Below are positions 10,076 through 33,176 of a DNA stretch of 64,000 bases, piece by piece (the first letter of the stretch is position 1; each line of letters begins with the position of its first letter). The stretch covers positions 58,448 through 122,447 of the forward strand of contig CAVYNY010000038.1 of the NCBI GenBank assembly GCA_963769935.1, written 5' to 3'. A program made the translations under genes and the position numbers. This DNA is from an uncultured delta proteobacterium. Its GTDB lineage: Bacteria; Desulfobacterota; Desulfobacteria; Desulfobacterales; JAFDCJ01. The notes beneath the pieces were generated by a model. It had not been told where the DNA came from. It did not search any database and saw nothing but the letters and a program-made list of their open reading frames with translations.

Positions 10076-10104
10076 TATATTTTCATATAAAAGGGTGGTG
10101 AATG

Positions 10105-15401: not shown

Positions 15402-15418
15402 ATTTCATATCGTGAAAT
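15402..15418. promoter_or_regulatory. Candidate IclR operator between divergent hcrB and iclR
   Basis: Palindrome ATTTCA-tatcg-TGAAAT; a related TTCA-taata-TGAA overlaps the iclR start codon (~15717-15729). Confidence 0.5.
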
Positions 15419-15574
15419 ATAGTTTCAAGATACCTGTCTCTATTATGATCCCGATCTTATTGTCAACAATTAAATTCTTATAAGAGTTCAGGGTTCAAAC
15501 GTTAAAATGTGAAATTATTTTTGAGTGAGCCCTAAGTAGGGGCGGGCTTTACGCCCGACCGGATTAGGTGCCGT

Positions 15575-15656
15575 CAACCGAACTCTCTGAACCCTTGAAC
15601 CTCTGAACGTTTGAACCCTGAACCCTGAAACTCTGAACCCTGTAACTCTGAACCTG
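15575..15656 (+). repeat. Short-period (7-9 bp) tandem repeat ctgaacc(c)
   Basis: Directly visible; the same motif recurs at ~30590-30620 (inverted) and ~30795-30835. Confidence 0.7.
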
Positions 15657-15724
15657 CCATTTTCTTCTTGACCTTAAAATAAAACATGATATAGGTTCCA
15701 CATATTAAACTAGAGATTCATAAT

Positions 15725-16516
15725 ATGAAACTATCGGCTGCGGAAAATTCAATCTACCGGGTCCAGGCCCTGGAGCGAGCGCTGGACATTCTGGACTGTT
15801 TCAATTTCCAGAACAGGGAACTAAGCCTGGCCGATGTGGTATGCCGCACCGGACTCAACAAGACCACCGCCAAGCGGCTGATTTCGAATCTGACAACGCG
15901 CGGTTATTTGCAGCAGGACCCCCAAACCAGAAAGTATCAGCTCGGCATGCGTCTGTTTGAGCTGGGCGGCGTTGTTTTTTCATCCTTTTCCCTGCGCCGG
16001 TCAGCCGCCTCTCCCATGACCGGCCTTCAGAATAAAACCGGTGCCACCGTGCTTCTGGGCGTCAGAATGGAGGATCAGCTGGTTTATGTCGACAAACGCG
16101 AGGGCGACGGTATGATCCGTATTTCATCGGATGTCGGCTGGCGCCGGCCGTTGCACTACGGCATGCTGGGCATGGTGCTGATGGCCAGTCTCGAATCAAA
16201 GGAAGTTGATCGGATCCTGAAAAAATATCCCCTTGAAGCCCACACCCCCTTCTCGATTACCGATATCGATGCATTCAGCCTGCGGTTGGAAGAAATTCGC
16301 GTTCAGGGGTATGCCGTTGAGAAAGAAGAAGCCGTTGAAGGTCTGGTTGGTATTGCCGCCCCCATAAAGAATTACAGCCGTCAGGTCGTGGCGGCGCTCG
16401 GCCTGGCGTTGCCCCTCGGCCGGCGCAATCTGAATGAAGATTTGGCTGGAATTGTGAAATCGGTGAAATATACTTGCGATTTGATTTCATCCGAATTGGG
16501 TTATTTGAAGATATAG
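15725..16516 (+). CDS. IclR family transcriptional regulator
   Basis: ALERALDIL HTH start, YQLGMRLFELG, RVQGYAVEKEE..GLVGIAAPI. Confidence 0.95.
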   Translation: MKLSAAENSIYRVQALERALDILDCFNFQNRELSLADVVCRTGLNKTTAKRLISNLTTRGYLQQDPQTRKYQLGMRLFELGGVVFSSFSLRRSAASPMTGLQNKTGATVLLGVRMEDQLVYVDKREGDGMIRISSDVGWRRPLHYGMLGMVLMASLESKEVDRILKKYPLEAHTPFSITDIDAFSLRLEEIRVQGYAVEKEEAVEGLVGIAAPIKNYSRQVVAALGLALPLGRRNLNEDLAGIVKSVKYTCDLISSELGYLKI

Positions 16517-16526
16517 AGGTTTAAAT

Positions 16527-18134
16527 ATGAAAATCTACGAATCTTTATCACTGGGACAAGTCCTGGAAAGAGGTGCCGCTCAAGCGCCTGATAAAGTCGC
16601 CGTGGTGGATGGCATTCAACGGAAGACTTACCGCGAATTGAACGCCATGGTCAACGCGCTGGCCGTCAGTCTGTCTGAAATCGGATTAAAAAAAGGAGAT
16701 CGAATCGCCCTTCATATGCCCAATTCCATAGAGTTGCTGACCGCCTTTTATGCCCTGCAAAAATTAGGCGCCGTCGTCGCCTGGGCCAATCCCATTTATC
16801 GCCGGAACGAGGCTCAGTTCATACTTAAAAATTCAGAGGCCCGAGGGGTGTTTATTTTCAGCAATTGGGATGGCAGAAATTATCATGATGACATTCTGAA
16901 TCTGAAAGACGAGCTGCCGGACCTGGAGTTCGTTTTCGCCGTCGGCAGCAATCAGGGCCAGGGCGTGTATTCCTTCTCTGATTTAGTCGGCAAGGGGATG
17001 GAGAAAACTTTTTCTGCTGAGCCTGTCGACCCTTTAACCGATCTGGCCATGCTGCTTTATACCTCCGGAACCACCGGCCGTCCCAAGGGGGCGATGATCA
17101 CCCATTATGCTGCGGTCAGGGCGGCCTGGGAATACTCCTTAGGTGTTGAGGCTTCTTCAGAAGACATTTTTATCGGCTTTTTGCCCATGAGCCATTCCTA
17201 CGGCTGCGGATCGATTCTGATTCAGCCCCTGCTGCTTCAGGCGACCGTGGTATTGATGGACAAATTCGAGGTGGAGAAAGCCTTTCAACTCATCGAGCAG
17301 GAAAAGATTACCCTGCAATTGGGCGCACCACCTCACTATATCCTGGAGTTAAGCCACAAAAGTCGACCCGCTTTTGACCTCAGTTCCGTGCGCGCCGGGA
17401 TGATTGCCGGCATGATCGCACCCGAGGGCCTGATAACGCGGGTCGATAAAGAGATGGGGATATATTTGACCTCTTTCTGGGGGGCTTCCGAAGTCGGGCC
17501 GGGACTGGGAACCATGTGCCCCTACCCTTCCCCGCTGGATATCCGGGAAAAATACATCGGCCAACCGGTGGCCGGCACTCAAATGCGAATTGTCGATCCC
17601 GTCACCCATGAAGAGCTGCCCGACGGGGAGATTGGAGAGCTGACCCTCAAAGGCTGGCATGTCATGCAGGGCTATTGGAAAAATCCGGCGGAAACCCAAA
17701 GACAGATTATCGATGGATGGCTTCACATGGGAGATCTGGCATCCAAAGAAGCAAACGGCTACCTGAAAATTTACGGGCGCACCAAGGACCTGATCAACCG
17801 CGGCGGCTATAAAATTTATCCCTATGAACTGGAATGCCTGCTGGTCGAACATCCCAAAGTCGAACAAGTCTGCATCGTCGCAACGCCGAATCCGGTTCTG
17901 GGCGAATCCATCTGCGCTTGTGTAGTCCCCAAACCGGGTCAAACAGTTACTCTGGCAGAAGTCAGGGAGTTACTGCAGGATCGGGTTGCCCCGCATAAAC
18001 TGCCCGACGAACTTTGTGTCATGGAAGATTTCCCGAAGTTATCCGGCGGTATAAAAATTAAAAAATTCGGCCAGGGCGGCCTGGCGGAGTTGGCCGATAA
18101 GGACGAATCCAGGCAAAAAATTCGAAAGAAATAA
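16527..18134 (+). CDS. Acyl/aryl-CoA ligase (AMP-binding, ANL family)
   Basis: YTSGTTGRPKG, WGASE, GWLHMGD, GRTKDLINRGG. Confidence 0.95.
   Translation: MKIYESLSLGQVLERGAAQAPDKVAVVDGIQRKTYRELNAMVNALAVSLSEIGLKKGDRIALHMPNSIELLTAFYALQKLGAVVAWANPIYRRNEAQFILKNSEARGVFIFSNWDGRNYHDDILNLKDELPDLEFVFAVGSNQGQGVYSFSDLVGKGMEKTFSAEPVDPLTDLAMLLYTSGTTGRPKGAMITHYAAVRAAWEYSLGVEASSEDIFIGFLPMSHSYGCGSILIQPLLLQATVVLMDKFEVEKAFQLIEQEKITLQLGAPPHYILELSHKSRPAFDLSSVRAGMIAGMIAPEGLITRVDKEMGIYLTSFWGASEVGPGLGTMCPYPSPLDIREKYIGQPVAGTQMRIVDPVTHEELPDGEIGELTLKGWHVMQGYWKNPAETQRQIIDGWLHMGDLASKEANGYLKIYGRTKDLINRGGYKIYPYELECLLVEHPKVEQVCIVATPNPVLGESICACVVPKPGQTVTLAEVRELLQDRVAPHKLPDELCVMEDFPKLSGGIKIKKFGQGGLAELADKDESRQKIRKK
17638..18126 (+). 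repeat. Direct repeat copy 1 (489 bp, 3' end of the CoA ligase)
   Basis: Matches 25124-25612 with two substitutions seen (~17951, ~18098). Confidence 0.95.
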
Positions 18135-18265
18135 AATCCAAGAAGTTATGCTTTGCAATGACCGAAATTTAATCTTACATCTAAGAAAATCGAGACAGAA
18201 CTTGATCTGACAATATGCCTGAAAATGGTATGTTTACAGTACCTGTAATTTTGAGAGGCCCGATT

Positions 18266-18400
18266 TTATGCAGATACCCCAACTAATTCAAATTCTGCAT
18301 CCTCAGTAAACATTGTCAATACTTTATCTACGTCTTTTCGATTGACCGCGTCCTTAAAAGATTCAACCAGACTTTGGAGATTGATAGTTTCTGCCATCAT
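18266..18400 (-). pseudogene. Truncated SnoaL/NTF2-like protein (44 aa)
   Basis: GAGGAG RBS; MMAETINLQSLVESFKDAVNRKDVDKVLTMFTEDAEFELVG then a stop. Confidence 0.6.
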
Positions 18401-18469
18401 TCAGTCTCCTCTTTTTGAATATTAAGACGGCAATTTTTGACTTGAGTAACAGAGAATAAAGTAATATCC

Positions 18470-18498
18470 CCCAACCCCCGGCTCTGCCGGGGGTTGGG
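18470..18498. other. Perfect 13-bp hairpin; terminator or IS200/IS605-like end
   Basis: cccaacccccggc-tct-gccgggggttggg. Confidence 0.6.
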
Positions 18499-18624
18499 AG
18501 CTACCTAAAGTAAATTATTAATCGGAGCAGGTGAAGTTTGATGCTGAGTCGACTACACCGTACCCGTTGTATTTCGGCCATGTCGGATACTCGCACAGCC
18601 GCTGGGTGCGGCCCACATGGACGG

Positions 18625-20687
18625 CTATCGGTTCCAATTTCGGTCCCAGTCTCGGTTCCAATTTCGGTCCCAGTCTCGGTTCCAATTTCGGTCCCAACCT
18701 CGGTCCCAATCCCGGTCATGATCTCGTTCGCGGGCGCAGGTGAAGCTTGATGCCAAGTTGGGGTCGCCGGATCCCTTGTATTTCGGCCAGGTCGGATACT
18801 CGCACAGCGGACGGGTGCGGCCCACATGGACAGCGGTATCGGTCACGATCTGGTCCGCCGGAGCGTTTCCCTTTTCTACCCAGTTTTCAAGCGCGGTGAG
18901 CGAGTCCCAGCCAGGGGTAAACGCGGCACCGAAGGCATGACCGACCCCGGGACCTCGTAAAACCTGGCAAACTTTCTGACTCTCGTAGGCCCGAATTGAG
19001 CCTGCAATAGTTCCCAGTACATCTCGCTGGCACGGGTGCTGACAAGCACGTCCTGCAGGCCGTGGGCAAGCAGCAGCTTGCCGCCACGGGCGACGAACGC
19101 CGAGATGTCCGTTTTCGTGTCGAGCTCTTTGCTGAGCTCGCTGATGCGATGAGCATAGGGGCCAGGGTTTTCGGGGTCGATCGAGAGTGTGTCGAAAGTG
19201 CCGGTTGGGTCGCCCACCACGGCGTATTTCATGAACTGGTCCATAAACGGACTGAGATACGGCATGCTTTGGTTCGCGGGGAGCGCCGGCTGTAAATACC
19301 CAAGGGTCAGGAAGATTACGTAGGCCTGCAGCGAATATCCTCCGGCGTCCGCTTGGGTCCTGCCAAGATCCGCGCCCCATACATTGCAGCCGGGGAATGA
19401 CTGCAATCCGCTCGCCATATAGAAGTGAAAGTTCGCGGGCGTGTTGTAAATGTTCAAGGCTTCAATTTGCGCATCCGACAGGCATTGTCAGCGGTGTCCT
19501 CACTTCCATCGCAGCGCACTACATCCGGATCGAATATCTCATTGCATTCCGTCTGGTTGCTGATTATGCCATCGGCGACACCATCCAGCTCATCGCAAAC
19601 CATCATTGCCGCGTCATAGAGCACCTTCCGCTGTGCCTGGTTGGGATAGGCATCCGGCTCCGCCATAGCTCTCATAATGCGCTGGCCTTGAAGCAGGGCG
19701 CCCATATCGTTCCAGGCCGGATACAAAGCGATGGCGCCGTCCCAGTCCGCGGGCCAGCGTTGAATGGCGGCCAATGCCTCACGCCCGCCGGTCGAGCCGC
19801 CCATAAAATACGATCTTTTTCGGATTCCGGCCATAGTAGTAATTGATGATGTAGACTGCCGCATCGCGGGTCTTCTTCGGTGCCTCGACGGTGAAGTTGC
19901 GCAAAGCCTCGTCGTTGAGGGCGAAAGAGCAGTCCTGCGAACCTAAGGACCCGGCCTGGTGACCGGAGTCACTGCCGAAGGTGGCATAGCCACGCCCCAA
20001 CGGCACCAACTGATCCGTTGGACCGAATCCCACATTCCCGGCCACATTCGGGATCGAGCCGTCGAAGCCGCCGCCGCCAAACGCCATCGCTTTATGGTTC
20101 CAACTTGCAGGCAGGTCGACCTGGAACTTGATATTCGGCGCAGTCGGGTCCACCGGACTGATTTCGCCCAGTACCATGCAATATGCTCCGATGGCTGCAG
20201 CCCCAGTGCCGGCCGCTGGGACTACTGTTGTGCCGGTGACCACGGCCCCGGTAGTCGGCAAGTCAATCGATGCCGCGGGAATCACCATACCGTTGATTTC
20301 CGCGCAGGCCAACGCCTGAGTCGTATCCTCCAGCGCATCAATTAAATCGGCCCTTTGAGAGGCGACAATCCATTTGGCAATTTTGTTTTCGATATTCTTC
20401 TTCAGTTTGTCCTTGGCACCCGTGTAAGCGCCGGCCTCGAGCTGGTCAAAAGTTGCATCGATTTTGTTAAGCAGCGCATCCCGATTGTTACGGTTCCGGA
20501 AAGCTGAGTCCGGAAGATCATTGATGAGGTCTTCCACATTCGTCAGGGCTTTCCAAGCGCTGTCAAAAGCGCTCGCAGCCTGAGCCGTTGTTATCTGAGG
20601 AGAAGGCACCCAGGTCAATCCCAGACTCACAAGGCAGAACAGAACGGAATACAGAATCCTAACAGCTCCATTTCCAATCTTCTTCAT
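18625..20687 (-). pseudogene. Secreted tannase/feruloyl esterase (MHETase-family) hydrolase with 3 frameshifts
   Basis: Signal peptide; GGGGFDG, SDSGH, GGSTGGRE nucleophile elbow, CDELDGVADG, AHGLQD, PGVGH, RPLCEYP spread over 4 consecutive frames; shifts at ~19810, ~19485 and ~18947. Confidence 0.85.
18628..18723. repeat. 12-bp tandem repeat (about 8 units, 24-bp higher order) encoding an RDWD/RNWN tail
   Basis: Alternating tcggttccaatt / tcggtcccagtc units. Confidence 0.9.
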
Positions 20688-20688
20688 T

Positions 20689-20985
20689 TTAAGACCTCCT
20701 TTTCAATAAGGCATGAGTTGCATTTTCATAAATCTTAAATGTTATTTCGAATTGGGAATTGTTTAATGAAACTAAGGCCTTGCACGCGGATGGTGGACAC
20801 CAATCATCCTTTTCGCCTGACAAAATCAGCAAATCAGCGTTAAGCTTAAAAATATCAGAACAATATGGATAAAATAAAACTGCACATTGGAATAGTTCTT
20901 CCTTAGATTTCGTAAATTCGCGGTGCCCTCCGCATTTTCCCTTAAACAAGCGGGGAAAATGAGAGGCGCTGTTGAACCCCATAGA
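20689..20985 (-). pseudogene. Chimeric remnant: AraC HTH fragment fused to a dienelactone-hydrolase C-terminal fragment
   Basis: GFNSASHFPRLFK (AraC-like) followed by FYPYC...LILSGEKDDWCP...YENATH (DLH-like Asp/His region). Confidence 0.55.
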
Positions 20986-21076
20986 TAATGCACACAACAA
21001 CCGCTGATAAAGTACAGAACCCCGGGGGACGGAAATTATCACCGCCCCTCTGGTTTCCGGTTTCGAGCATTAACTG

Positions 21077-23008
21077 CTATGGAATTAGTCCAAAAGCATT
21101 AAAAACAGGTCCGGCTGTGGGAAACCTGTCTCTTGCCGCCTGAATATCTTGGGAATAATGATCCATGGCCGTGGTGCTCTCCACACTGATATCATAGGCG
21201 GTGAGATCGGCATCGAAGACGATCACTTTCGGTTCTCCAACCGCATTGGACCACTGGGGCCACTCCGGGCGAGGGTAACCCATCAAATTGGGATCTCCCG
21301 TCCATACAAACGATCCCAGATAATCCATCATTGCACGCTGGAGAGCTTCGCGACCGGGCCGATTGGTCTCCGAGAAACCCCAGCCAAAGAGGTCGTCGTC
21401 CCAACCGAAGAAAAAAGGAAGCTCCGCAGCGTGGCAAGGGCCGACAAGCAACCTGAAAGCTTCTTTCTCCGGATCGCCTCCGCCCCCCCATTGGAAGACA
21501 TAACTGTAAACCGGATTCTCATCATTTTCGTCCTTGATTGCAGCCGCCGGCTGGTCTGCGCCTCCGTCCCGCCACTGGCGAGTCCAAAGGTCCCGCTATT
21601 GTTTCATAAAGAGCCTTGTCCTCTGGGGAAGGCAATACGTCATCGAGTGTCAGGTCGCCCGGGTCAAAGACCCTGAATGCATCTCCCCAGGAGTAATCGC
21701 CCGATGGAAAACCAAGTAACTTCGGATAGGCACCGTAGTATCGCATATACGCCTTGTACTCGTAACGGTTGGTTCCGATCAGCAGGGGCACCCGGTTATG
21801 TTGTCCACTCTCGATTGTGGGATAAAAGCCTTCAGCCGGGACAACGTTCCCATCGAGGAAAGGTTGTACACTCCCTCCCGCCGCGATGTGGGCTGCCATG
21901 ATTTCTTCAGCAGACTTCCATCTGAGGTAATCCTCGATCTCGTCGTTGGTCATGTTTGCCCGATATGCTGCGGGATCCCCCCCACACCGACGGTTCCGTC
22001 ATCCACGAGGAGCCACTCGATCATCTTATTTGTCTTGGCATCCCCTGTTGCCGGAGTGTCGAAGGTGGCTGAAGGCGGTGCGCCGCTCTCCACGACAGCA
22101 GATCTAAAGAGCCCCGAAGCCTTGGGCGATATGAGCAGGGTAAGCGTATCCAGCGCCCCTGCCGACTCACCGGCCAAGGTAACACTTAGCGGATTTCCGC
22201 CGAATGCACCGATGTTTTCTCTGGTCCACTTAAGCGCTTGGATTTGGTCGAGGATACCGAAATTTCCGGATGCGTCCAGTGCATTTTCGTCATCCCGAAA
22301 AGCAGGGTGAGAGAGCCAGCCGAAGGGGCCCAGACGGTATTGGACCACCACGACAATGATGTTCTCTCTTTTGGCCAGTGCTTTCCCGTCGTAATTCGTG
22401 GCGCCACCGAAAACATTGGATCCTCCGTGAAGCCATACGTAGACGGGAAGATGTTTGTCATCCGTGTCAGGGCGGTAGATATCTACGTAAAGGCAATCCT
22501 CACTCCCTACAATTTCCCCCGAGGTAATCCACGTGCGGCTTGTCAATCGTTGCGTGCACTCGCTGCAAGGTTCCGTAGCATCTCTGACTCCCGCCCAATG
22601 CTCAGGGTCTTCGGGAGCAGTCCAGCGAAGCCCTCCCACCGGTGGTTTCGCAAATGGGACGCCTTTCCAGACCCAGGTTCCGTTGCTCTCCTGGTAGCCC
22701 TTGAGTTTGCCGTATTTCGTCTCTATAATCTCTTTATTCCATCCATCATTCCACCTGTATTCAGGAGAACCCCACGACGGTCGTCTCTTAAATGGGACGT
22801 TTTTCCAAACCCAGGTTCCGCTGCTCTCCTGGTAGCCCTTGAGTTTGCCGTATTCAGTCTCTATAATCTTTGTGTTCCGGTTATCATTGCGCGCGTGATC
22901 AGGAGGACCCCACGACGGTTGCTTCCCCTGCCCTTGACCTGCGATCGCAACGCCACAAGCGAAGAAAAGAAACACTCCGAGAATCATAATAGCAATCGCT
23001 TTTTTCAT
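21077..23008 (-). pseudogene. Secreted type-B carboxylesterase (pNB-esterase family) with 2 frameshifts
   Basis: GVPFAKPPVGGLRW, SEDCLY, WLHGGSN, GESAG, GTNRYE, CHAAEL; shifts at G-runs ~21980 and ~21593. Confidence 0.85.
22652..22919. repeat. Diverged 138-bp (46-aa) tandem duplication in the carboxylesterase N-terminus
   Basis: PSWG...IIET(E/K)YGKLKGYQES(S/N)GTWVWK(N/G)VPF occurs twice. Confidence 0.9.
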
Positions 23009-23574
23009 ACCGTTGCCTCCTTTATAGTATAGACTTGATTTGTAATGAGATCTTTCTTTGCAATACTATCGAGATTACCCATAATTGTTCTTTGAAAAAT
23101 TTACTTAATTTTAACAGGCTGATATGCGCATTTGAATGCCTTTTGGCATTCGAAGGTATGGACGAATTATATCAAGCGACATCATTTCGAAACTAAAGGA
23201 TCAGACAGCACCTGTTCATAAGGGCTCATTATGGTTCATTCAGAAAAACGGTTGAAACTCAAATATAGATATGGAAAATATATAGAGATGAAAAAAGTGA
23301 GCTGAATAATATTCTAATATAAAATCTCTGTCAAGTTCTAATTATAATCTGATATAACATATTAAATATATATGGAATATATTATTTTTTTTAGATAACT
23401 CCGAATTTTAGTTTTTCCCCTAATTAATATATATTTTGTCGAATATTGCTCGATATTAGTGAATAATATTGCCAAAATCAAATAAAGAGCTATAGGTTTA
23501 TTGCCGTTTTAAAGACAATCCGTTTGATCCCGCTGCTTTTCAGCAGGGCTTACTGATTTTGCAAGGGGTAACTA

Positions 23575-24747
23575 ATGATGAGCGAAAAGAAGCAAAAAAT
23601 TCTGGATGCGGCCGAGCGTATTATGTCTGCCAAGGGACGAAGCGCTACAATCAGCGAAATAAGCGCCGCTTCTGGGGTAACGGATTCTGTGCTCTATCAT
23701 TATTTCGAAAACAAAGAGGACTTACTTTTCTCTGTCGCACAAGAGCACCTCAGGGATGCACTGGAAAAATTGGATGAACAACTCCAGGGCATCATGGATC
23801 CGGTCAATCAGCTTAGTAAGTTAATATGGTTTCAACTGTATTACCATGACACTCACCCTGACTATGGAAATCTCCTTTTGTTCGAATGTCGCTCAAGCAA
23901 GCGGTTTATGAACCATGAGGCTTACGGATTGATTAAGCGTTGGTCCGGCATCGGAATAGAAATTCTCAACAATGGAATTTCTGACGGCTCTTTCCGCAAA
24001 GACCTTGCCCTCCCAATAGTTCGTGATGCAATTTTTGGATTGGTTGATATGGAAAATATTCAGTTCCTGACTGCACGAGAACAGCTACAGGCACATAAGG
24101 ACCTGGACGCTATTTTGGACCTCGTGCTGCCGATGATTCGACCCGATACAGAGGAGTGTGCCCCTAAAAACAACAAGGCCGGCAGAATACTGGCGTCTGC
24201 TTTAAGCGTTTTTGCCGCAAAAGGATTTCAGAACGCTACGGTACAGGAGATTTCAAAATCGGCGAATGTGTCTGAAGGAACTATTTACGAATATTTTAAC
24301 AACAAGGAAGATTTGCTCTTTTCCATACTTGAGCGGCAATTTCAGAACAATCTTGATTTGCTTGATGAGTTGTTTGAAGTCAGGACCCCGCTGCGCAAAC
24401 TAAAACGCTTCATGCGCTATCATTTCACGATCTATCTTACCCAGCCTGTTTTTGTAAAAGTTTTTTTGTTTGATGCGATTTACAATTCCGGCTTCTACGC
24501 CTCAAACGCCTATCAACCCTTTAAGCAATACATCGAAAGCATCTATGCGATTCTTGACGAGGGTAAAAAAGATGGCAGTATACGGCCGGAAATCAATAAT
24601 CGTGTATTCAGAAATCTTTTTATGGGAATCTTCAGCCACATGGCCTTGAGGTGGCTGTTTACGCAAAAAGGCCGCCAGACTGATAAAATCGAAGAGATTA
24701 ATGCGGCCGTTGCCCTTTTAAGCCGATCCATTGCGTCAAAAAAATAA
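23575..24747 (+). CDS. Tandem double-TetR transcriptional regulator
   Basis: Two TetR HTHs: ATISEISAASGV..LYHYFENKEDLL and ATVQEISKSANVSEGTIYEYFNNKEDLL. Confidence 0.92.
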   Translation: MMSEKKQKILDAAERIMSAKGRSATISEISAASGVTDSVLYHYFENKEDLLFSVAQEHLRDALEKLDEQLQGIMDPVNQLSKLIWFQLYYHDTHPDYGNLLLFECRSSKRFMNHEAYGLIKRWSGIGIEILNNGISDGSFRKDLALPIVRDAIFGLVDMENIQFLTAREQLQAHKDLDAILDLVLPMIRPDTEECAPKNNKAGRILASALSVFAAKGFQNATVQEISKSANVSEGTIYEYFNNKEDLLFSILERQFQNNLDLLDELFEVRTPLRKLKRFMRYHFTIYLTQPVFVKVFLFDAIYNSGFYASNAYQPFKQYIESIYAILDEGKKDGSIRPEINNRVFRNLFMGIFSHMALRWLFTQKGRQTDKIEEINAAVALLSRSIASKK

Positions 24748-25123
24748 AGTTCACGGACCGTGAGGTCTAATCCGGCTAACCGAATATCGGCACAAAAAAC
24801 TGATGCTAAATTGCCTGTTCGCAGCCGTATCCAAAACCCTGGTGACTTTCGGTGAAATTTAATCTTAATTTCGGTATACATAAAAGTAGGCGGGAAACTA
24901 TATGCAACTAAGACGTTGTTGATCTATTAAAATCTCAATTTTATCTTTAATTTGGGGGTTGTAGGCAAAAAAAGTGCTAAAATTTGCTAATCTTTTAATC
25001 CGAATCGAATGATATTAATGAGTTAGGTGGTTTGTACCTTTAGCCGAAGCTCAAAAACTTGTAGGCACATGTTTTAACAATATTTGAGTGCGAAACAAAT
25101 TAAAAAGAACCGTTATGTTTAAA

Positions 25124-25620
25124 AGCTGACCCTCAAAGGCTGGCATGTCATGCAGGGCTATTGGAAAAATCCGGCGGAAACCCAAAGACAGATTATCGAT
25201 GGATGGCTTCACATGGGAGATCTGGCATCCAAAGAAGCAAACGGCTACCTGAAAATTTACGGGCGCACCAAGGACCTGATCAACCGCGGCGGCTATAAAA
25301 TTTATCCCTATGAACTGGAATGCCTGCTGGTCGAACATCCCAAAGTCGAACAAGTCTGCATCGTCGCAACGCCGAATCCGGTTCTGGGCGAATCCATCTG
25401 CGCTTGTGTAGTCCCCAAACCGGGTCAAACAGTTACCCTGGCAGAAGTCAGGGAGTTACTGCAGGATCGGGTTGCCCCGCATAAACTGCCCGACGAACTT
25501 TGTGTCATGGAAGATTTCCCGAAGTTATCCGGCGGTATAAAAATTAAAAAATTCGGCCAGGGCGGCCTGGCGGAGTTGGCCGAAAAGGACGAATCCAGGC
25601 AAAAAATTCGAAGGAAGTGA
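25124..25620 (+). pseudogene. Direct repeat copy 2: 5'-truncated CoA ligase 3' end
   Basis: Near-identical to 17638-18126; no upstream ligase sequence; ends KIRRK versus KIRKK. Confidence 0.9.
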
Positions 25621-25648
25621 TGGTCGCTCAACAAACCACCGGCAATAC

Positions 25649-26464
25649 CTACCTTTTCTTGAGACTCAAAATTTCTCGGGCCTCATCGGGAGTCGCAATT
25701 TCACGTCCGCACTCCCGGGAAATCCTGACAATACGCTCGACAAACTGGGCATTGGTTTTAGCCAGAACACCTTTGGCGTAGTATAAGCTGTCTTCCAAAC
25801 CGACCCGGATGTGACCTCCCATCACGAGCGCCAGCATGGACATCGACAGCTGCCATCTGCCGGCCCCGATGACGGACCAGGTGGAAGACTGCGGGATATG
25901 ATCCAGCAAGTGCAGCAGGGATTTCGGCGTTGCGGGAGCACCCCAGGGTGTTCCCAAAACCAATTGAAAATGAAGCGGTTCATCTACCTTTCCCTGATCT
26001 CTCAAATGCAAAGCGGTAATCAGCATGCCGAGGTCGAATGTTTCAAATTCAGGCTTAACCCCGTTGTCTCTCATTTTTTCGGCTGCCCGATCCAGAAACT
26101 CCGGTGAATTCACATAAACAGAACGGCCCCGATTGAAGGAGCCGGCATCAAAAGAGGCCAGCTCCGGTTTTAAATCAACCGGTGCCAGCCGTTCCTCGGT
26201 GGCAAAGTTTCCGCTGGTGGTCAGGCATAAGATCAGATCGGTTCTCTCCCGCAGCGGTTCCACCACCTGCCTGAAAACCTCCACATCCTGCGTGCCAAGG
26301 CCCGTTTGCGGGTCCCGGACATGGATATGAGCGATGGCGGCCCCCGCCTGCCAGCATTCATAGGCCGACTGGACAATTTCTCCCGGCGTTAAGGGAATAT
26401 AGGGAGTCATCTCGCGGGTGATCCGGCCGCCGGTAATGGCGGCGGTAATGATGAGTTTCTCCAC
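25649..26464 (-). CDS. Beta-keto acid cleavage enzyme (BKACE/Kce, DUF849)
   Basis: IITAAITG, AGAAIAHIHVRD, PELAS, GGHIRVGLED, EIATPDEAR. Confidence 0.93.
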   Translation of the reverse strand: MEKLIITAAITGGRITREMTPYIPLTPGEIVQSAYECWQAGAAIAHIHVRDPQTGLGTQDVEVFRQVVEPLRERTDLILCLTTSGNFATEERLAPVDLKPELASFDAGSFNRGRSVYVNSPEFLDRAAEKMRDNGVKPEFETFDLGMLITALHLRDQGKVDEPLHFQLVLGTPWGAPATPKSLLHLLDHIPQSSTWSVIGAGRWQLSMSMLALVMGGHIRVGLEDSLYYAKGVLAKTNAQFVERIVRISRECGREIATPDEAREILSLKKR

Positions 26465-26702
26465 GTCAGGAACCTCTCGCGCTTGAGTTAAAAACCAGCA
26501 GGAAGTATTGGTTACTAGTCGCCTTAGTAGGTTTCAGGTGTTCCGCCTTCGGCGGACCGATGGCCAAAGCAACGGCCGGTCTGATCGAAAAATAAAACTG
26601 AATAATTCACCGCCGAGTTCGCGGAGGAACGCTGAGAAAATTCTCAGACAATTTTTCTTAACCTCAGCGATCTCAGCGGTCTCTGCGGTGAGTTGCATCT
26701 AA

Positions 26703-28061
26703 CTATTTATCCCGATGCTGTTTGACCTGCTCCAGGACGCGATCAATAAAGTGCTGGGTTTGACCGAGATAATTTTCCGGTTTGGCCAGCGTCTCCCAGT
26801 CTATTTTATTCTGCGGCGCTGTCGCGCCGAACTTTTGTTTGACAACTTCAATCAGTGAGCGGTTTTCAGCGGCGGCAACGCCGCAGGCCTGCTTCACCAG
26901 GGCCTGGGCCTCGGGACGTGAAATTTCGGCCGACAGCGCCTGAACCGCGGCCTCCGCCAGCACGAGATCATTCGAACGTGCAATATTTTCCCGCATCGCG
27001 TCTTCATTGACCTTGAGATTTTTAGCCAGAAACAAGGCGTTCCTGAGCGCTCCGCCCGTTAATACGATCATCTGGGAAAGGGTCAGCCACTCAACCTGCC
27101 AGCCATGGGTGGCCCGCTCGTGTTCCTGGATCATGGCCTGATGCATGGCCGACAAAAGGGATGCATTCGTGCGGGCTGCTGCAATGATGAGTTCGCTGAC
27201 AATGGGATTGCGCTTCTGCGGCATGGAGCTGCTCCCTCCGCGGTCCGGCTCGCCCGATTCCGCGACCTCCCCGACTTCATTCTGGGCCAGCAGAATGATG
27301 TCCTGGGCCATCTTGGCCAGGCTGGCTGTGAGCATACTCAACCAACCGGCGAACTCGGCCAAACTGTCCCGCTGACTGTGCCACGGCATCAGCGGCAGAC
27401 TCAAATCCAGCTCCCGCGCAAGGGCCTGCATCACAGCCATTCCATTGTCTCCCAGCGCCGCCAGGGTGCCGGCTGCTCCGCCGAACTGGAGCTGCAGCAG
27501 CCCGCTGCGCTGGGCGGCCAGCCGGTTTCGGTGCCGCAGCAGCGGCGCGAGCCAGCCCGCTGCCTTTAAGCCGAAGCTGACGGGCAGGGCTTGCTGGCCA
27601 TGGGTTCGTCCGGCCATCACCGTTGCACGATGACGATCGGCCAATTCTGCCAGGCCACCGATGATCATTGCCAGCCGATTCTCCATGATTCCCAGCGCGG
27701 AACGAATCTGAAGCACCGTTGCCGTATCGACAATATCCTGCGTGGTTGCCCCCCAGTGGACGTAGGGTGCCGCTTCCCGGCCGACGGCTGCCCGCAAAGC
27801 CTTTACCAGCCCGATGACGGGGACGCCGTCGCGCAGCATGCCTTGTCCGATCTGCTGTGGATCCAAGGCGACGCTGCCGGCAATTTTTGAGATCCGTTCG
27901 CCCGCCGCGGAAGGGATGATGCCCAGCCTCGCTTCAACCCGGGCCAGGGCGCCTTCGACCGCGAGCATGGCCCGCAGAAAAGCATCGTCGTCAAAGAGCC
28001 CGGCAATTTCCGGATCACTGAAAAGCGGGCCGAATATTTTAGAATCGAGAGGTAGAGTCAT
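26703..28061 (-). CDS. pcaB: 3-carboxy-cis,cis-muconate cycloisomerase
   Basis: HWGATTQD, GRTHGQQA, GGSSSMPQKRNP, QEHERATHGWQVEW; next to pcaG. Confidence 0.9.
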   Translation of the reverse strand: MTLPLDSKIFGPLFSDPEIAGLFDDDAFLRAMLAVEGALARVEARLGIIPSAAGERISKIAGSVALDPQQIGQGMLRDGVPVIGLVKALRAAVGREAAPYVHWGATTQDIVDTATVLQIRSALGIMENRLAMIIGGLAELADRHRATVMAGRTHGQQALPVSFGLKAAGWLAPLLRHRNRLAAQRSGLLQLQFGGAAGTLAALGDNGMAVMQALARELDLSLPLMPWHSQRDSLAEFAGWLSMLTASLAKMAQDIILLAQNEVGEVAESGEPDRGGSSSMPQKRNPIVSELIIAAARTNASLLSAMHQAMIQEHERATHGWQVEWLTLSQMIVLTGGALRNALFLAKNLKVNEDAMRENIARSNDLVLAEAAVQALSAEISRPEAQALVKQACGVAAAENRSLIEVVKQKFGATAPQNKIDWETLAKPENYLGQTQHFIDRVLEQVKQHRDK

Positions 28062-28064
28062 GCT

Positions 28065-28667
28065 TCACGCATCAAAAAACGCGGTTTCGTTCTCGCCCTG
28101 GATGTGAATATCGAAGCGGTAGATTACTTTGCCTTCCGCCTTTTCGCGACCGGCAATCAGGGTATTTCTCCGGGCTGGGTCGTCAATGCTCACCAGGACG
28201 GGATCGTTTTGATTGGCGGCTTCGCCTTCGAAGTAGATCCGGGTGAACGCATGCGACAGCATGCCACGCGCAAACACGATGACATTGATATGCGGCGCCT
28301 GCAGGGTATCATTCGATCCCGGAACCATGCCCGGTTTGATGGTTTCAAACCAGTAGTTGCCGCTGGTGTCGGTTGCTGTCCGTCCGTGTCCCATGAATTC
28401 GGGATCGAGCGGTTTAGCCTGTTCGTCTAAAGGGTGATGGTAGCGTCCATGCCTGTTTGCCTGCCAGATTTCGATCAAGGCATCTTCAATCGGATGTCCC
28501 TCGCCGTCGGTAACACAGCCTTCGATCCGGATTCGCTCACCTTCCGTTTTTTCTGAGACCAGAACATTGGTAAATATTTTATCACCTGCACGCAGAAGCC
28601 CCTGGGAAAAATAGGGGCCGACCGTCTGGGAGGGGCTTTGAGTCATCATCGGATTGTAGGGTTTCAT
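28065..28667 (-). CDS. pcaG: Protocatechuate 3,4-dioxygenase alpha subunit
   Basis: PSQTVGPY, IEIWQAN, QAPHINVIVFARG, TRIYF, ETAFFD. Confidence 0.95.
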   Translation of the reverse strand: MKPYNPMMTQSPSQTVGPYFSQGLLRAGDKIFTNVLVSEKTEGERIRIEGCVTDGEGHPIEDALIEIWQANRHGRYHHPLDEQAKPLDPEFMGHGRTATDTSGNYWFETIKPGMVPGSNDTLQAPHINVIVFARGMLSHAFTRIYFEGEAANQNDPVLVSIDDPARRNTLIAGREKAEGKVIYRFDIHIQGENETAFFDA

Positions 28668-29383
28668 TTTCTCCCCTTAAACGGTGTCTCCTCCCGTCCT
28701 CTGAGCACAAAATCAAACCGGTAGCCCAGCGCCGAACCGGGTTCGGAAACATCGTGGGAAAATTTGGCAACCAGCCGCTGCCGGGCTTTCTCATCGGGGA
28801 TACCGTTGAATATGGGATCCAGTGGAATCAGCGGGTCGCCGGGAAAATACATCTGAGTTACGAGGCGCGTCACGAATGCCGAACCAAACAGCGAAAAATG
28901 GATGTGGGACGGGCGCCAGGCATTATAATGGTTGCCCCATGGATACGGTCCCGGTTTTATACTGACGAATCGATACTCGCCCTTTTCGTTGGTCATGCAG
29001 CGGCCGGCACCCGAAAAGTTGGGATCCAGGGGCGCATCGTGCTGATCACGTTTATGCGGGTAGCGGCCGGCGGCATTGGCCTGCCACACTTCGATCAGGG
29101 TGTTGGCCACCGGACGTCCATCCTCTTCCAGCACCCGCCCGGTAACGATGATCCGTTCCCCTATGGCTTCACCCCCCCTGCCCGCGTTGGTGGTCAGATC
29201 ACTGTCGCCGGGTTGAACGGTGTCATGTCCGTAAACCGGTCCGGTAATTTCCGATAAGGTCTGGATCAGCGGTATGAGTGGTTTGCGGGGCGACCGCAGC
29301 GGCGTCGACCGGTAGGGTTCATAGAGATACGGCGGATGTACGCTCCAGTCCCGTGGTCCGTACCGCTTGATTTTTAATTGCAT
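28664..29383 (-). CDS. pcaH: Protocatechuate 3,4-dioxygenase beta subunit
   Basis: SEITGP, WQANAAGRY, PGPYPW, WRPSHIHFS (Fe ligands Tyr, Tyr, His, His intact); overlaps the pcaG start. Confidence 0.95.
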   Translation of the reverse strand: MQLKIKRYGPRDWSVHPPYLYEPYRSTPLRSPRKPLIPLIQTLSEITGPVYGHDTVQPGDSDLTTNAGRGGEAIGERIIVTGRVLEEDGRPVANTLIEVWQANAAGRYPHKRDQHDAPLDPNFSGAGRCMTNEKGEYRFVSIKPGPYPWGNHYNAWRPSHIHFSLFGSAFVTRLVTQMYFPGDPLIPLDPIFNGIPDEKARQRLVAKFSHDVSEPGSALGYRFDFVLRGREETPFKGRK

Positions 29384-29655
29384 GTTTATCCCTCGCAAGA
29401 TGGCACTTCAGAAACTGCCTAGGATTCCAAAATACTGCATGTGTCTAAAGCTCAAAAAAATGCCTAAAATGCGCTAAAGTGACTAAAATGCCTAAAATTA
29501 ATGTATTCTGTCGTTTTATATGAACTATCAACCGGCGCGTCAACGCCATAGCCTTCTTTCTTTATCTTTTATCCTTTAGCCTTTCACCTTTTTCCTTTAT
29601 CCAGCAGCCAAGCCAACTCAATAAACTCAACAAACTCAATAAACCCAATCCACGC

Positions 29656-30039
29656 TCACCCCTTCCCATCCATCTCGTCATACACGCGCTTGGCAACGGC
29701 AAAGGCCGAATTGGCAGCCGGAACGCCCGCATATACAGCGACCTGCATAAAGACTTCTTTGACTTCATTGCGCGTAACGCCTGTATTGCGGGTGGCCCGC
29801 ACATGCAGGGCCAATTCCTCATGCTTGCCCAGCGCCGCCAGCATTGCGATGGTGAGCAATTGCCGCGTCTTAATTTCAAGACCCGGCCTGACCCAAACGG
29901 AACCCCAGGCACATTCTGTAATGTAGCGCTGAAAGTCGTTGTCAAAATCCGACTTCTGGGCTTCGGCGCGTGCGACATGATCTTCGCCGAGCACAGATTT
30001 ACGAATCTGCATACCTTTTTCGAACTTTTCGTCAATCAC
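29656..30039 (-). CDS. pcaC: 4-carboxymuconolactone decarboxylase
   Basis: RKSVLGEDHV, FQRYITECAWGSVW, VYAGVPAANSAF. Confidence 0.93.
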   Translation of the reverse strand: MIDEKFEKGMQIRKSVLGEDHVARAEAQKSDFDNDFQRYITECAWGSVWVRPGLEIKTRQLLTIAMLAALGKHEELALHVRATRNTGVTRNEVKEVFMQVAVYAGVPAANSAFAVAKRVYDEMDGKG

Positions 30040-30313
30040 TGCGGATGCCCTCCAGAAAATCGATTACCTGTCGCGAAAATAACTCCGGTTGCTCGACACA
30101 GGAAATATGAGAGGCACCTTCAATAAGGGAAAATTCCGCCCCGATCACGGCCCCGGCGAGTTCCCGCGCAAGTTCAGGCGGCGTGGCCAGGTCCTGGTCG
30201 CCGCACAACACCAGCGTCGGCCGCTTGATGGCGGCGGCGACTTCACGCAAGTCGGCGTCCCGAACTGCGCAGCACGTGCCGATGTACCCCTCGACGGGTG
30301 TTCTTTCCAGCAT
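30032..30313 (-). pseudogene. pcaD: 3-oxoadipate enol-lactonase, C-terminal third only
   Basis: EGYIGTCCAVRDADLR, PTLVLCGDQDLATP, HISCVEQP; the N-terminal part with the catalytic Ser is absent and upstream DNA is AT-rich non-coding. Confidence 0.8.
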
Positions 30314-30856
30314 AATGAACGACTTTATTTACTTCTACAAAAGACATGCCTGAACACCCGACCAGGTTAAAAGAAAATCCAACAGGCGGAACCCGAAAAT
30401 GAAAATAACAAGGAGAAAATCAGCTCTGATTGCCGGAGTCGAATAAGTATACCTGCAAACTAAACACTGGTGAAGAATTATCAAGTAGTCTGCTTTAAAA
30501 TATCTCCTTCGCCCTGGTGTTTCTCGGATCGTGGCAAAATCAGAAAGTTGACTTTCATTGAGTTAATGCTTAAGTAACCGTTCAGGAATATGAGGTTCAG
30601 GGTTCAGTGTTCAAAGGTTCATGGCTCTATTTCGATTGGAAATGTGACCAATAATGTGACCAATAAATATGGAAGTTAATGAACTCTATCGTTATAATTT
30701 AGGCTGAAGTTAATGGCGGGAAGACTTCGGCAGGTAGCGACTGGGCTAAACCCTGCCTGTGCGATCAAAGCGCGCAGCGCGAAGCCCCAAACCACTGAAC
30801 CTCTGAACCCCCTGAACCCTGCACCTCTGAACCCTTTCCAAAAAGGAGTTCTTCCA

Positions 30857-32038
30857 ATGAAGACAGAGACGCAAGTCGGCATCATCGGGGCCGGTCCGTC
30901 CGGCCTGCTGCTCTCTCATCTGCTGCACCTGGAGGGCATCGACTCGGTTGTGCTGGAAGCGCGCAGCCGCCAATATGTCGAGGAACGCGTGCGGGCAGGC
31001 GTTCTTGAGCAGGGTACGGTCGACCTGCTGTGCGAGACCGGCCTCGGCGACAGACTCCGGCGTGAAGGACTGGTGCACCACGGCATCGAGCTGCGTTTCG
31101 ACGGCCGCGGTCATCGGATCGCCCTGAGCGATCTTACCGGCGGCCGTGCCATCTGGATCTACGGCCAGCAGGAGGTCGTCAAAGACCTGAACAATGCCCG
31201 GCTGGCAGCGGGCGCAACGATCCACTTCGAAGTAAATGACGTGCGGCTGGCCGGCATCGAGTCTGCCAGCCCTGTTATTCAATACCGCAAAGATGACCGG
31301 GAGCACACTCTGGCCTGTGATTTCATTGCCGGGTGCGACGGATTCCACGGTGTGTCGCGGGATTCGATTCCGAGCGGCGTCCTGCGGACCTACCAGCACG
31401 ATTACCCGTTCGGATGGCTGGGGATTCTGGCCGCCGTCGCACCGTCGACCAAAGAGTTGATTTATGCCTCTCACGACCGGGGGTTCGCCCTGCACAGCCT
31501 CAGAACCCCTGAAATCAGCCGCCTATACATTCAGGTGAACCCCGACGCGGACATCAATGAATGGCCGGATGAACGCATCTGGGAAGAACTCAGCCTGCGC
31601 CTGGCTACCGATGACGGCTGGACGCTGACCGACGGACCGATCCTGGAAAAGGGCATTACTTCTCTGCGCAGCTTCGTTGTCGAGCCCATGCAGCACGGCC
31701 GGCTGTTCCTGGCGGGGGACGCCGCGCACATCGTGCCTGCCACCGGGGCCAAGGGGTTGAACCTGGCGGTGCATGATGTGCGGATACTCGCGGAAAGCCT
31801 CACCGCCTGGTTCCGCACCGGTGCCACCGAGCTCCTTGAGCAATACTCAACCAAGTGCCTGCGCCGGGTTTGGCGAGTCCAGGATTTCTCGGCATTTATG
31901 AGCCTGATGCTGCACCGTTTTCCCGACGACGACGGATTCAGGGGCCGCCTGCAACGCGCGCAGCTGGCGTACGTCTGCAGCTCGGAAGCTGCGGCACGCA
32001 GCCTGGCGGAGAACTATGTCGGACTGCCGCATGTATAA
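30857..32038 (+). CDS. pobA: 4-hydroxybenzoate 3-monooxygenase
   Basis: GAGPSG, RAGVLEQG, GCDGFHG, YPFGWLG, LAGDAAHIVPATGAKGLN, AENYVGLP; ATG at 30857 after AGGAG. Confidence 0.95.
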   Translation: MKTETQVGIIGAGPSGLLLSHLLHLEGIDSVVLEARSRQYVEERVRAGVLEQGTVDLLCETGLGDRLRREGLVHHGIELRFDGRGHRIALSDLTGGRAIWIYGQQEVVKDLNNARLAAGATIHFEVNDVRLAGIESASPVIQYRKDDREHTLACDFIAGCDGFHGVSRDSIPSGVLRTYQHDYPFGWLGILAAVAPSTKELIYASHDRGFALHSLRTPEISRLYIQVNPDADINEWPDERIWEELSLRLATDDGWTLTDGPILEKGITSLRSFVVEPMQHGRLFLAGDAAHIVPATGAKGLNLAVHDVRILAESLTAWFRTGATELLEQYSTKCLRRVWRVQDFSAFMSLMLHRFPDDDGFRGRLQRAQLAYVCSSEAAARSLAENYVGLPHV

Positions 32039-32179
32039 TTCCGATTGAAGTTATTAGTTGATAGTTATTAGTTAATAGCTTTAGAGGAATACTATCCTGC
32101 CTTATTGTTTCCTTTACCGATTATTTTGCAGACATGGAATGGATCTCCATTTACAACCGCCCAACCAATCAACGATTAC

Positions 32180-32308
32180 CTATATCCTTAAATATGCTTT
32201 TTTGACGTGTTCGTTTCCTAGCAGATCCCTGCTCCCGCCGCTCAGTACAATGCGTCCGTTTTCCAGGACATAGGCTCTATCGGCGACCTCCAGCGCGTGC
32301 TGCACATT
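32180..32308 (-). pseudogene. C-terminal remnant of a LivF-type ABC ATPase
   Basis: Hand translation NVQHALEVADRAYVLENGRIVLSGGSRDLLGNEHVKKAYLRI*. Confidence 0.75.
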
Positions 32309-32317
32309 TTTTTATGC

Positions 32318-32375
32318 TTGACACATTTAAATGAATCGTTTAATATCCAGAACAGTCGTTCTACATAGAGAACGA
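32318..32375 (+). promoter_or_regulatory. Sigma70-type promoter plus palindromic operator upstream of the second iclR
   Basis: TTGACA(32318)-17 bp-TAATAT(32341); palindrome TCGTTCT-acatag-AGAACGA at 32356-32375. Confidence 0.65.
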
Positions 32376-32399
32376 TTTATTAATCAGGGCGGAGTAATT

Positions 32400-33176
32400 A
32401 TGCCGAATGAATTCAAAAACGTCCCGGCCATCGAAAAGTGTTTTGCAATCCTGCAGCTTTTTGCAAAATCAAAACAGGGGCTTGGCATCAGCGAAATTTC
32501 CAAACAGCTCAAATTGAACAAGAGCACGGTATTCGGCATCATTTACACCCTGAAACATCTGCAGGTCCTCGAACAAAATCAGGACGGTAAATTTCACTTC
32601 GGCACCCTACTCTATCTGTTGGGCAACGCCAACGGACAAAAATCCGAACTCATTCAAACGGTTCACCCCTATTTGGAAAAGATAAACCGGGAGACGAAGC
32701 TATCGGCCTTCCTGGGAATTCGATCCGAAAACCAGGCAGTTATCCTCGACAAGGTCGATACGGCTTATGACATCAAGATCTCATCCGAGATCGGCATGCG
32801 CCTGCCTTTAACGGCCGGTGCCGGCGGCAAAGCGCTGCTGAGCCAGCTTGCGAACCGTGAGATCGACCGGATTCTGAGCGCCGCCACCTTAAAAAAATTC
32901 ACCGCCCGAACATGCGTGAACAAAAGCCAAATTAAGATGGATATCATAAATATCAGAGAAAAGGGCATTGCTGTCGACGATGAGGAATATATCGACGGCG
33001 TCCTCGCTTTGTCGGTGCCGCTTAATGCGTACCGGCCGGATCTTCAGGCCGCCCTATGGGCCGTGGGATTAAGGCAGCAGATTCGACCGGAAACTATACC
33101 CGCAATCAGCGATTATTTAAAAAATACTGCAAATGAGATAAACCAACGGTTCTATAAAATGCCGGTCGAGTTTTAA
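32400..33176 (+). CDS. IclR family transcriptional regulator
   Basis: VPAIEKCFAIL, GISEISKQLKLNKSTV, GAGGKALL, AVDDEEYIDG. Confidence 0.93.
   Translation: MPNEFKNVPAIEKCFAILQLFAKSKQGLGISEISKQLKLNKSTVFGIIYTLKHLQVLEQNQDGKFHFGTLLYLLGNANGQKSELIQTVHPYLEKINRETKLSAFLGIRSENQAVILDKVDTAYDIKISSEIGMRLPLTAGAGGKALLSQLANREIDRILSAATLKKFTARTCVNKSQIKMDIINIREKGIAVDDEEYIDGVLALSVPLNAYRPDLQAALWAVGLRQQIRPETIPAISDYLKNTANEINQRFYKMPVEF

Follow-up and report, generated by a model that had tools for sequence, protein, structure and literature searches.

A Kce-like BKACE gene at the end of a protocatechuate gene run in a Desulfobacterales genome: a possible exit from the beta-ketoadipate pathway

The stretch of DNA analysed here (the window) comprises 64,000 nucleotides of contig CAVYNY010000038.1 (positions 58,448 to 122,447 of the forward strand), part of the assembly GCA_963769935.1 of an uncultured member of the Desulfobacterales. 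On its minus strand it carries a co-oriented run of protocatechuate genes, pcaD'-pcaC-pcaH-pcaG-pcaB, that ends with a gene of the BKACE family (DUF849). A first-pass annotation, made from the sequence alone, had described this run and suggested that the BKACE enzyme could take the place of PcaIJ and PcaF as a one-step exit from the beta-ketoadipate pathway. The open reading frames (ORFs) and family scans bear out the run as described. Its components and divergent neighbours, in window coordinates, are listed below.

25649-26464, minus strand: BKACE (DUF849), 271 aa, GTG start, Kce-like with Arg14; PF05853, 340.2 bits
26465-26702: pcaB-BKACE spacer, 238 bp, with a dispersed repeat resembling repetitive extragenic palindromic (REP) elements, core at about 26562-26592
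26703-28061, minus strand: pcaB, 3-carboxy-cis,cis-muconate cycloisomerase; TIGR02426, 403.9 bits (cut-off 355.75)
28065-28667, minus strand: pcaG, protocatechuate 3,4-dioxygenase alpha subunit; TIGR02423, 238.1 bits (cut-off 126.25)
28664-29398, minus strand: pcaH, protocatechuate 3,4-dioxygenase beta subunit; TIGR02422, 353.3 bits (cut-off 296.4)
29399-29655: pcaC-pcaH spacer, with short tandem motifs (9-nt units) and dispersed repeats
29656-30039, minus strand: pcaC, 4-carboxymuconolactone decarboxylase; TIGR02425, 184.9 bits (cut-off 155.7)
30032-30313, minus strand: pcaD', C-terminal 93-aa remnant of 3-oxoadipate enol-lactonase; TIGR02427, 101.5 bits (cut-off 255.85)
30713-32038, plus strand: pobA, 4-hydroxybenzoate 3-monooxygenase, divergent from the pca run; NF006091, 610.6 bits, above its cut-off
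32331-33176, plus strand: IclR-family regulator, PcaR/PcaU/PobR-like, divergent; PF01614 and PF09339; TIGR02431, 123.4 bits, short of the cut-off of 284.75

The genes pcaC, pcaH, pcaG and pcaB are all full-length, each scoring above its NCBIfam equivalog cut-off, and every pca gene is single-copy in the genome. The BKACE protein matches PF05853 over the entire profile (positions 1-274 of 274), far above the gathering score of 24.8, and the pcaD remnant covers positions 164-251 only of the 251 in TIGR02427. The first-pass annotation had also reported a window without a CoA-transferase or thiolase, which holds: Pfam found none among the 65 ORFs scanned, and a tblastn of the window, queried with ScoA, ScoB and a thiolase from this genome, gave no match at E<=1e-3.

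The 238-bp gap between pcaB and BKACE does contain a repeat, as had been noted; it has 55 further blastn matches in the genome and a 31-nt core with a CCGCC-GAAG-GCGG hairpin. The repeats of the pcaC-pcaH spacer, including its tandem 9-nt units, have 78 further genomic matches. No terminator-like site was found on the coding (minus) strand of the pcaB-BKACE gap, and a consensus scan for promoter-like sites there, which is uninformative, found none. In relatives this gap measures about 80-190 bp and is conserved, in a comparison of the window with loci L034-L037, only at the ribosome-binding stretch. Metatranscriptome libraries X13 and X19 and DNA runs X1 and X6 yielded, over positions 25300-30800, short contigs from relatives only (90-96% alike), which cover parts of pcaB, pcaG, pcaH and pcaC and one piece of BKACE (X13, 26011-26446). 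No contig bridging the pcaB-BKACE gap is listed among them, a result uninformative on co-transcription because the RNA libraries may contain DNA.

The best structural match of the BKACE protein in the PDB is Kce (2y7d, 235.5 bits), and the metal-binding and catalytic positions are kept. Residues H46, H48, E141, R220, E224 and D225, invariant in 20 relatives, align to H46, H48, E143, R226, E230 and D231 of Kce, its Zn ligands and catalytic residues. The dN/dS (ratio of nonsynonymous to synonymous substitution rates) of the window BKACE against its orthologues is 0.10-0.15. With its catalytic residues intact, a populated subclade and this dN/dS, the gene is under purifying selection and functional. 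One difference from Kce is at position 14. According to PMC10470551, Glu14 of Kce is required to bind the 5-amino (ammonium) group of the substrate; the window BKACE has Arg14 at this position, as do 22 of 22 sequences of the Desulfobacterota Kce-like clade, the residue being invariant in the 20 aligned relatives. Elsewhere the position is Gln, Phe, Val or Ala (the neighbouring Bacillaceae clade) or Leu or Val (the clade of the NCBIfam family NF053568, discussed below). An arginine at the site that reads the tail of the substrate would suit a negatively charged tail, as found in 3-oxoadipate, and the pocket should accordingly prefer one. In a separate member of the family, BKACE15, the residues E171 and R254 are named in PMC11961710. 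A possible compensation of the four-residue loop deletion (IPGR) of the window protein by Arg112/Arg114 was considered and rejected, as the loop Arg and the R-G-R motif occur together in P0004-P0006 and P0012.

Among curated models the window BKACE scores highest with Kce (NF052387, 331 bits, cut-off 382), followed by the dioxohexanoate transferase (237.8, cut-off 430) and NF053568 (222.4, cut-off 350). The first-pass annotation had allowed that the protein might cluster with lysine-fermentation Kce, and on this point the outcome is divided: the best model is that of Kce, which speaks against the proposed role, but its cut-off is missed and Arg replaces Glu14.

The pcaB-BKACE order is not peculiar to the window; as the first-pass proposal would lead one to expect, it recurs in three related genomes and on 11 metagenome contigs. 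BKACE is co-directional with pcaB and directly follows it in 3 of 38 genome loci (L035, L036 and L037), and the 22 metagenome loci with a BKACE at least 76% identical divide into 11 linked to pcaB, six unlinked and five too short to tell; these counts are not independent, some metagenome loci being duplicates of genome loci (L112 is L037). The linkage was found in none of 58 more distant loci. The full order in the relatives is a divergent pobA, the run pcaD-pcaC-pcaH-pcaG-pcaB-BKACE, a convergent acyl-CoA ligase gene with an IclR gene, and an Hcr-like molybdenum hydroxylase. The window BKACE belongs to a subclade, W (motifs G-A-G-R-W-Q-L and E-D-S-L-Y-Y), sister to a subclade P that holds nearly all pca-linked BKACE genes. 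Linked loci occur in both sister subclades, the window in W and all others in P, and since both flanks are common to the window and P, the shared arrangement is probably older than the split between them. Subclade W comprises 18 clusters at 82-94% identity, nine of which have the loop deletion of the window protein; 301 genomes of the order and 401 of the class gave no further genomic contexts for it. An accelerated decay of the BKACE, suggested by its long branch in the tree with the NF053568 proteins, was rejected, W having been unsampled there and metagenome sequences placing the protein in a populated subclade.

The replacement of PcaIJ and PcaF by a BKACE enzyme is an idea already in print for another clade of the family. 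PMC8963497 describes Methylobacterium pca clusters without pcaIJF that have a DUF849 gene between pcaG and pcaB, and cites Bastard 2014 for a 'G4' BKACE that cleaves beta-ketoadipate. Two preprints (10.1101/2025.03.17.643779; 10.64898/2026.03.02.709203) describe the transfer of a pcaHGBL-kce operon into M. extorquens and report evolved strains with a mutation upstream of the gene for acetoacetate CoA-transferase; PMC6449761 states that COG3246 homologues frequently accompany protocatechuate dioxygenase genes. The Bastard groups, as reproduced in PMC4922564 (Table 7, Table S1), assign activity on 3-keto-5-aminohexanoate (KAH) to G2, the Kce group, and negatively charged substrates to G4, with 25 detections on beta-ketoadipate. 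The Kce-related G3, which split from one active-site branch with G2, is given there as five subgroups, one of them active on beta-ketoadipate, with four such detections in the group; its members include Desulfatibacillum alkenivorans B8F8T5 and B8FJB3 and Desulfococcus oleovorans A8ZUE2. NCBIfam has an equivalog for 3-oxoadipate:acetyl-CoA acetyltransferase, NF053568. Passing matches to it were found in 18 of 61 genomes of a Methylobacteriaceae-level sample, and 12 loci were kept; together with one protein from the order of the window (locus L095) these give a reference set of 13 passing proteins. At least 3 of the 12 Methylobacteriaceae loci, plus L095, have pcaH/G/B or pcaC/D adjoining the BKACE gene. 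L095 itself (7853-14005, genome G351, same order, other family) is arranged pobA-pcaD-pcaC-pcaH-pcaG-BKACE-pcaB, and its BKACE passes NF053568 with 462.9 bits, so that both BKACE lineages are found beside pca genes within one order.

On its other side, the window BKACE is approached by a convergent set of genes that likewise has counterparts in the relatives.

10913-13210, 13715-14194 and 14280-15251, minus strand: three subunits of an Hcr-like molybdenum hydroxylase (Pfam)
15725-16516, plus strand: IclR regulator of the ligase/Hcr-like block (Pfam)
16527-18134, plus strand: acyl-CoA ligase, full-length (Pfam)
18131-25123: fragmented genes, roughly 7 kb, separating the ligase gene from its duplicated end (partial-profile Pfam matches; duplication borders)
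25124-25616 (ORF 25150-25620), plus strand: second copy of the ligase 3' end, in convergent orientation to BKACE; 493 bp, 99.4% identical to 17638-18130

The window keeps the order of its relatives, with the ligase/IclR/Hcr-like block at 10.9-18.1 kb and some 7 kb of gene fragments before BKACE; the block is 66-75% identical to that adjoining BKACE in L034, and the same order is seen in L034-L037. The fragments comprise a tannase gene in two pieces, a carboxylesterase reduced to its N-terminal half and two TetR units in tandem. They are bracketed by the direct duplication, and the segment thus enclosed may have been inserted recently or else joined in during assembly. Farther out, a second set of xanthine-dehydrogenase-family genes (FAD, 2Fe-2S and molybdenum cofactor (MoCo) subunits) lies on the plus strand at 4877-8737, followed by ThiF-like and FdhD-like genes, and an extra gene of the carboxymuconolactone-decarboxylase family adjoins a cupin gene at 61876-62668.

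The state of pcaD was surveyed in ten loci that hold both pobA and pcaC, the window and nine others. The gene is full-length in four (L037 and L112, which are identical, L109 and L111) and undetectable in L035 and L101. The remaining four retain remnants, each with its own end point, which in the numbering of the full-length 274-aa PcaD of L037 comprise residues 182-273 in the window, 1-43 and 239-274 in L107 (3182-3409), 242-274 in L036 (3234-3332) and 250-274 in L115 (2408-2482). The other genes of the pcaD-eroded clusters are intact, except for frameshifts in pobA and pcaB of L035. Since the loss is repeated and independent, PcaD seems to be dispensable to these clusters, and repeated loss would mean that the lower pathway is wired unlike the textbook one. 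A stand-alone PcaD equivalog is encoded on contig 13 (266.7 bits, cut-off 255.85), and among other carriers of the cluster G002 has a PcaD above the cut-off.

The assembly comprises 41 contigs and 8.0 Mb, with 96.7% completeness and 5.4% contamination, and the window lies on contig 38, which we argue to be native rather than contamination because the pca-spacer repeats recur on many other contigs. It encodes dsrA (620 bits) with an adjoining dsrB-like gene. The closest relatives of the BKACE are all from Desulfobacterales or Thermodesulfobacteriota metagenome-assembled genomes (MAGs), among them one of Desulfosarcina and that of the Olavius 'Delta 1' symbiont. The family is expanded in this genome to six full-length paralogues (five besides that of the window) and two fragments, the further copies and fragments being on contigs 9, 11, 20, 32, 33, 37 and 7; their neighbours include TRAP, Tct or MFS transporters, 3-hydroxyacyl-CoA-dehydrogenase-like (3HCDH-like) genes, an acyl-CoA ligase, an enoyl-CoA hydratase and a biotin carboxylase. 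A second Arg14 BKACE, 76% identical, is among them, with an MFS transporter and a 3HCDH-like gene some 3 kb away. In the window, an anaerobic-type module (10913-18134) and the O2-dependent pobA/pcaHG module (25649-33176) lie side by side in this dsrA-bearing genome. A search of the papers available found no report combining protocatechuate or pcaH with Desulfobacterales, Desulfosarcina or Olavius.

We propose that BKACE closes a 4-hydroxybenzoate/protocatechuate island that has spread horizontally and is found here in a Desulfobacterales genome with dsrAB. PobA, PcaHG, PcaB and PcaC, with an enol-lactonase that would supply the missing PcaD step, would form 3-oxoadipate as their end product. 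On its Zn2+ centre, BKACE would convert 3-oxoadipate and acetyl-CoA to succinyl-CoA and acetoacetate, and the latter would be activated by a ScoAB-type CoA-transferase encoded on contig 18 and then split by a generic thiolase. Because acetoacetate still needs both of these enzymes, such a route would replace the specificity of PcaIJ and PcaF, not CoA-transferase and thiolase chemistry, and the description of the reaction as a one-step exit was an overstatement. The broader claim of a replacement fares better in part: the precedent chemistry, the conserved pcaB-BKACE order and the lack of a PcaF equivalog favour it, while the position of the protein outside the NF053568 clade and a transferase pair elsewhere in the genome do not. 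That the window BKACE cleaves 3-oxoadipate with acetyl-CoA in vivo, as a second recruited lineage, is on present sequence evidence a tentative reading that falls somewhat short of an even chance. With slightly less assurance, we suggest that the Kce-like Arg14 lineage may have been recruited, independently of NF053568/G4, as the exit of an O2-dependent protocatechuate pathway that spreads among sulfate-reducing Desulfobacterales, beside an anaerobic-type 4-hydroxybenzoate module. We see only a slight chance that BKACE, or an unknown partner, also performs the enol-lactone step. In essence, a published idea is extended here to an enzyme outside NF053568 whose conserved operon position and charge-reversed specificity residue nevertheless fit the same job.

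Several observations weigh against this proposal, beginning with the protein itself. Its NF053568 score is far below the cut-off, as is that of the pca-linked orthologue of L037 (239.9 bits); it is 32-39% identical to the 13 passing proteins, which form a clade of their own, apart from the Kce-like clade that holds it, in a quick IQ-TREE run with midpoint root and with support values only from the Shimodaira-Hasegawa-like approximate likelihood ratio test (SH-aLRT 100). The NF053568 proteins carry Leu/Val14, Lys17 and Lys/Gln173-Asn174, where the window BKACE has Arg14 and Thr-Pro-Trp; against a pocket signature derived in this analysis from the 13 sequences, not from a paper (G-S-[LV]-P-[TR]-K, with [KQ]-N at 173-174), it reads G-G-R-I-T-R and P-W. 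Its place in a pca or cat operon without pcaIJF, on the other hand, is that of the NF053568/G4 type. Arg14 marks the whole clade, not just its pca-linked members. At the level of the operon, the pcaB-BKACE spacer holds a REP-like insertion, co-transcription across it being putative, and pcaD, the maker of 3-oxoadipate, is a stub in the window and a remnant or undetectable in five of the nine other loci with pobA and pcaC, which weakens a simple chain from PcaD through 3-oxoadipate to BKACE; no PcaD above the cut-off was found in the cluster carriers G003 and G004. Finally, the genome may have other means of disposing of 3-oxoadipate. A search for pcaIJF, which the first-pass annotation had recommended, gave a mixed answer: none of 12 thiolase matches reaches the PcaF cut-off of 597 bits (best 338), but an unlinked pair of the PcaIJ/ScoAB family on contig 18 passes both its cut-offs (227.5 bits, cut-off 128.5; 283.2 bits, cut-off 243.55). 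This is the only PcaIJ-family pair in the genome; it lies among amino-acid ABC transporter and deacylase genes, and no thiolase or pca gene adjoins it. Together with the at least six generic thiolases of the genome it could give a classical exit. Of the other carriers of the cluster, G002 and G003 also have a ScoB-family gene, whereas none was found in G004.

Much of the same evidence would be expected if the adjacency were incidental. BKACE would then be a resident of the ligase/IclR/Hcr-like locus or a free-standing gene, cleaving another anionic beta-keto acid, and 3-oxoadipate, if made, would leave through the contig-18 CoA-transferase and a generic thiolase; we regard this alternative, the main rival, as quite possible, if on the whole doubtful. 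The substrate could in that case come from a 3-hydroxy-dicarboxylate dehydrogenase or a biotin carboxylase. Most members of the Arg14 clade adjoin 3HCDH-like genes, MFS/TRAP transporters or biotin carboxylases, and pca-linked members do not differ from unlinked ones at position 14 or in the rest of the pocket. In L046 and L050 an Arg14 BKACE gene adjoins subunits of a biotin-dependent carboxylase (PYC_OADA/HMGL-like, biotin carboxylase and carrier protein), which hints at a ketone-carboxylation route supplying the beta-keto acid. As a neighbour of BKACE, the convergent ligase/IclR/Hcr-like block is no less constant than pcaB, and the linkage on that side persists where pca genes are lacking (L034) or where an ABC transporter stands in their place (L113, L114); in L108 only the Hcr-like part of the block is kept. 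All linked loci fall in one clade, so that the adjacency may trace to a single event, and the other W loci whose flanks are long enough (L096, L098 and L102) have neither pca nor ligase neighbours. Of 301 genomes sampled in the order, 8 have a BKACE of the Arg14 clade and 3 have a PcaH above the cut-off. One genome of the window's genus, G320, has both, its pobA-pcaHGB and its Arg14 BKACE being on different contigs. At its pca locus (L094, 8239-12970) only pobA, pcaH, pcaG and pcaB are present, with no pcaC, pcaD or BKACE nearby and with sigma-54 two-component genes downstream. What an incidental adjacency does not readily explain is that BKACE has retained its co-directional place right behind pcaB on both sides of the W/P split, at a synonymous divergence (dS) of about 0.8-1.1, that BKACE cannot be co-transcribed with the convergent ligase gene, that no thiolase reaches the PcaF cut-off and that the contig-18 transferase has neither a thiolase nor a pca gene beside it.

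It is improbable, in our estimation, that the island is decaying and carries no flux in this genome, with BKACE surviving for another role or on its way to being lost. The pcaD stub, the nearly identical duplication flanking the tannase, esterase and TetR fragments and the REP-like insertions in two spacers would fit such a history, as would the dN/dS of the window BKACE, about twice the 0.05-0.09 of orthologue pairs; this ratio is nevertheless still far below 1, and pobA, pcaC, pcaH, pcaG, pcaB and BKACE are all full-length against their models. The stand-alone PcaD equivalog on contig 13 also argues against decay, and the varied end points of pcaD in several relatives that keep the other genes suggest that pcaD is dispensable, not that the pathway is being lost. 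That the protein is a true Kce is very improbable. Its best model and best structure are those of Kce, and source databases give its relatives this name, but it falls below the family cut-off and has Arg for Glu14, no lysine-fermentation gene lies in the window, and lysine 5,6-aminomutase (PF09043) has no match in the 96.7%-complete genome, a null result that control genomes gave as well.

Should an assay of 3-oxoadipate cleavage prove positive, this activity would have arisen at least twice in the BKACE family, by different pockets (Arg14 versus Lys17/Lys173). Such a result would also document that sulfate reducers from marsh and sediment habitats, and a symbiont of a gutless worm, have a complete O2-dependent route for aromatic acids of the lignin type. 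A negative assay would be a caution against annotating pca-adjacent BKACE genes from position alone.

Compared with the known systems, the window BKACE shares with the NF053568/G4 type (kce of the Methylobacterium pca operons) the Pfam family, the catalytic residues, a pca operon without pcaIJF and the proposed reaction. It differs in sequence (32-39% identity, a separate clade, the missed cut-off), in the pocket (positions 14, 82-84 and 172-176) and in gene order, since the NF053568/G4 gene sits between pcaG and pcaB and that of the window after pcaB. Among curated models and solved structures alike, Kce comes closest, with length and numbering that match up to residue 52; unlike Kce, the window protein has Arg in place of Glu14, scores below the NF052387 cut-off and has no lysine-fermentation genes around it in the window. 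Of the Bastard groups, it would most plausibly fall into G3, which, as far as the data in PMC4922564 go, holds Desulfobacterales proteins and a subgroup with detections on beta-ketoadipate. The classical exit through PcaIJ and PcaF has the same net result, 3-oxoadipate to succinate or succinyl-CoA and acetyl-CoA; here, in contrast, cluster and window are without pcaIJ or pcaF, the genome has no PcaF equivalog and the PcaIJ-family pair is unlinked. Another known system is CsTAL, the triacetate acetoacetate-lyase of Clostridium scatologenes. PMC10470551 attributes the altered substrate of this Kce-like BKACE to Trp16 in place of Glu14, which shows that the position can switch specificity; in CsTAL the residue is hydrophobic and the substrate a neutral diketo compound, whereas the residue of the window BKACE is cationic.

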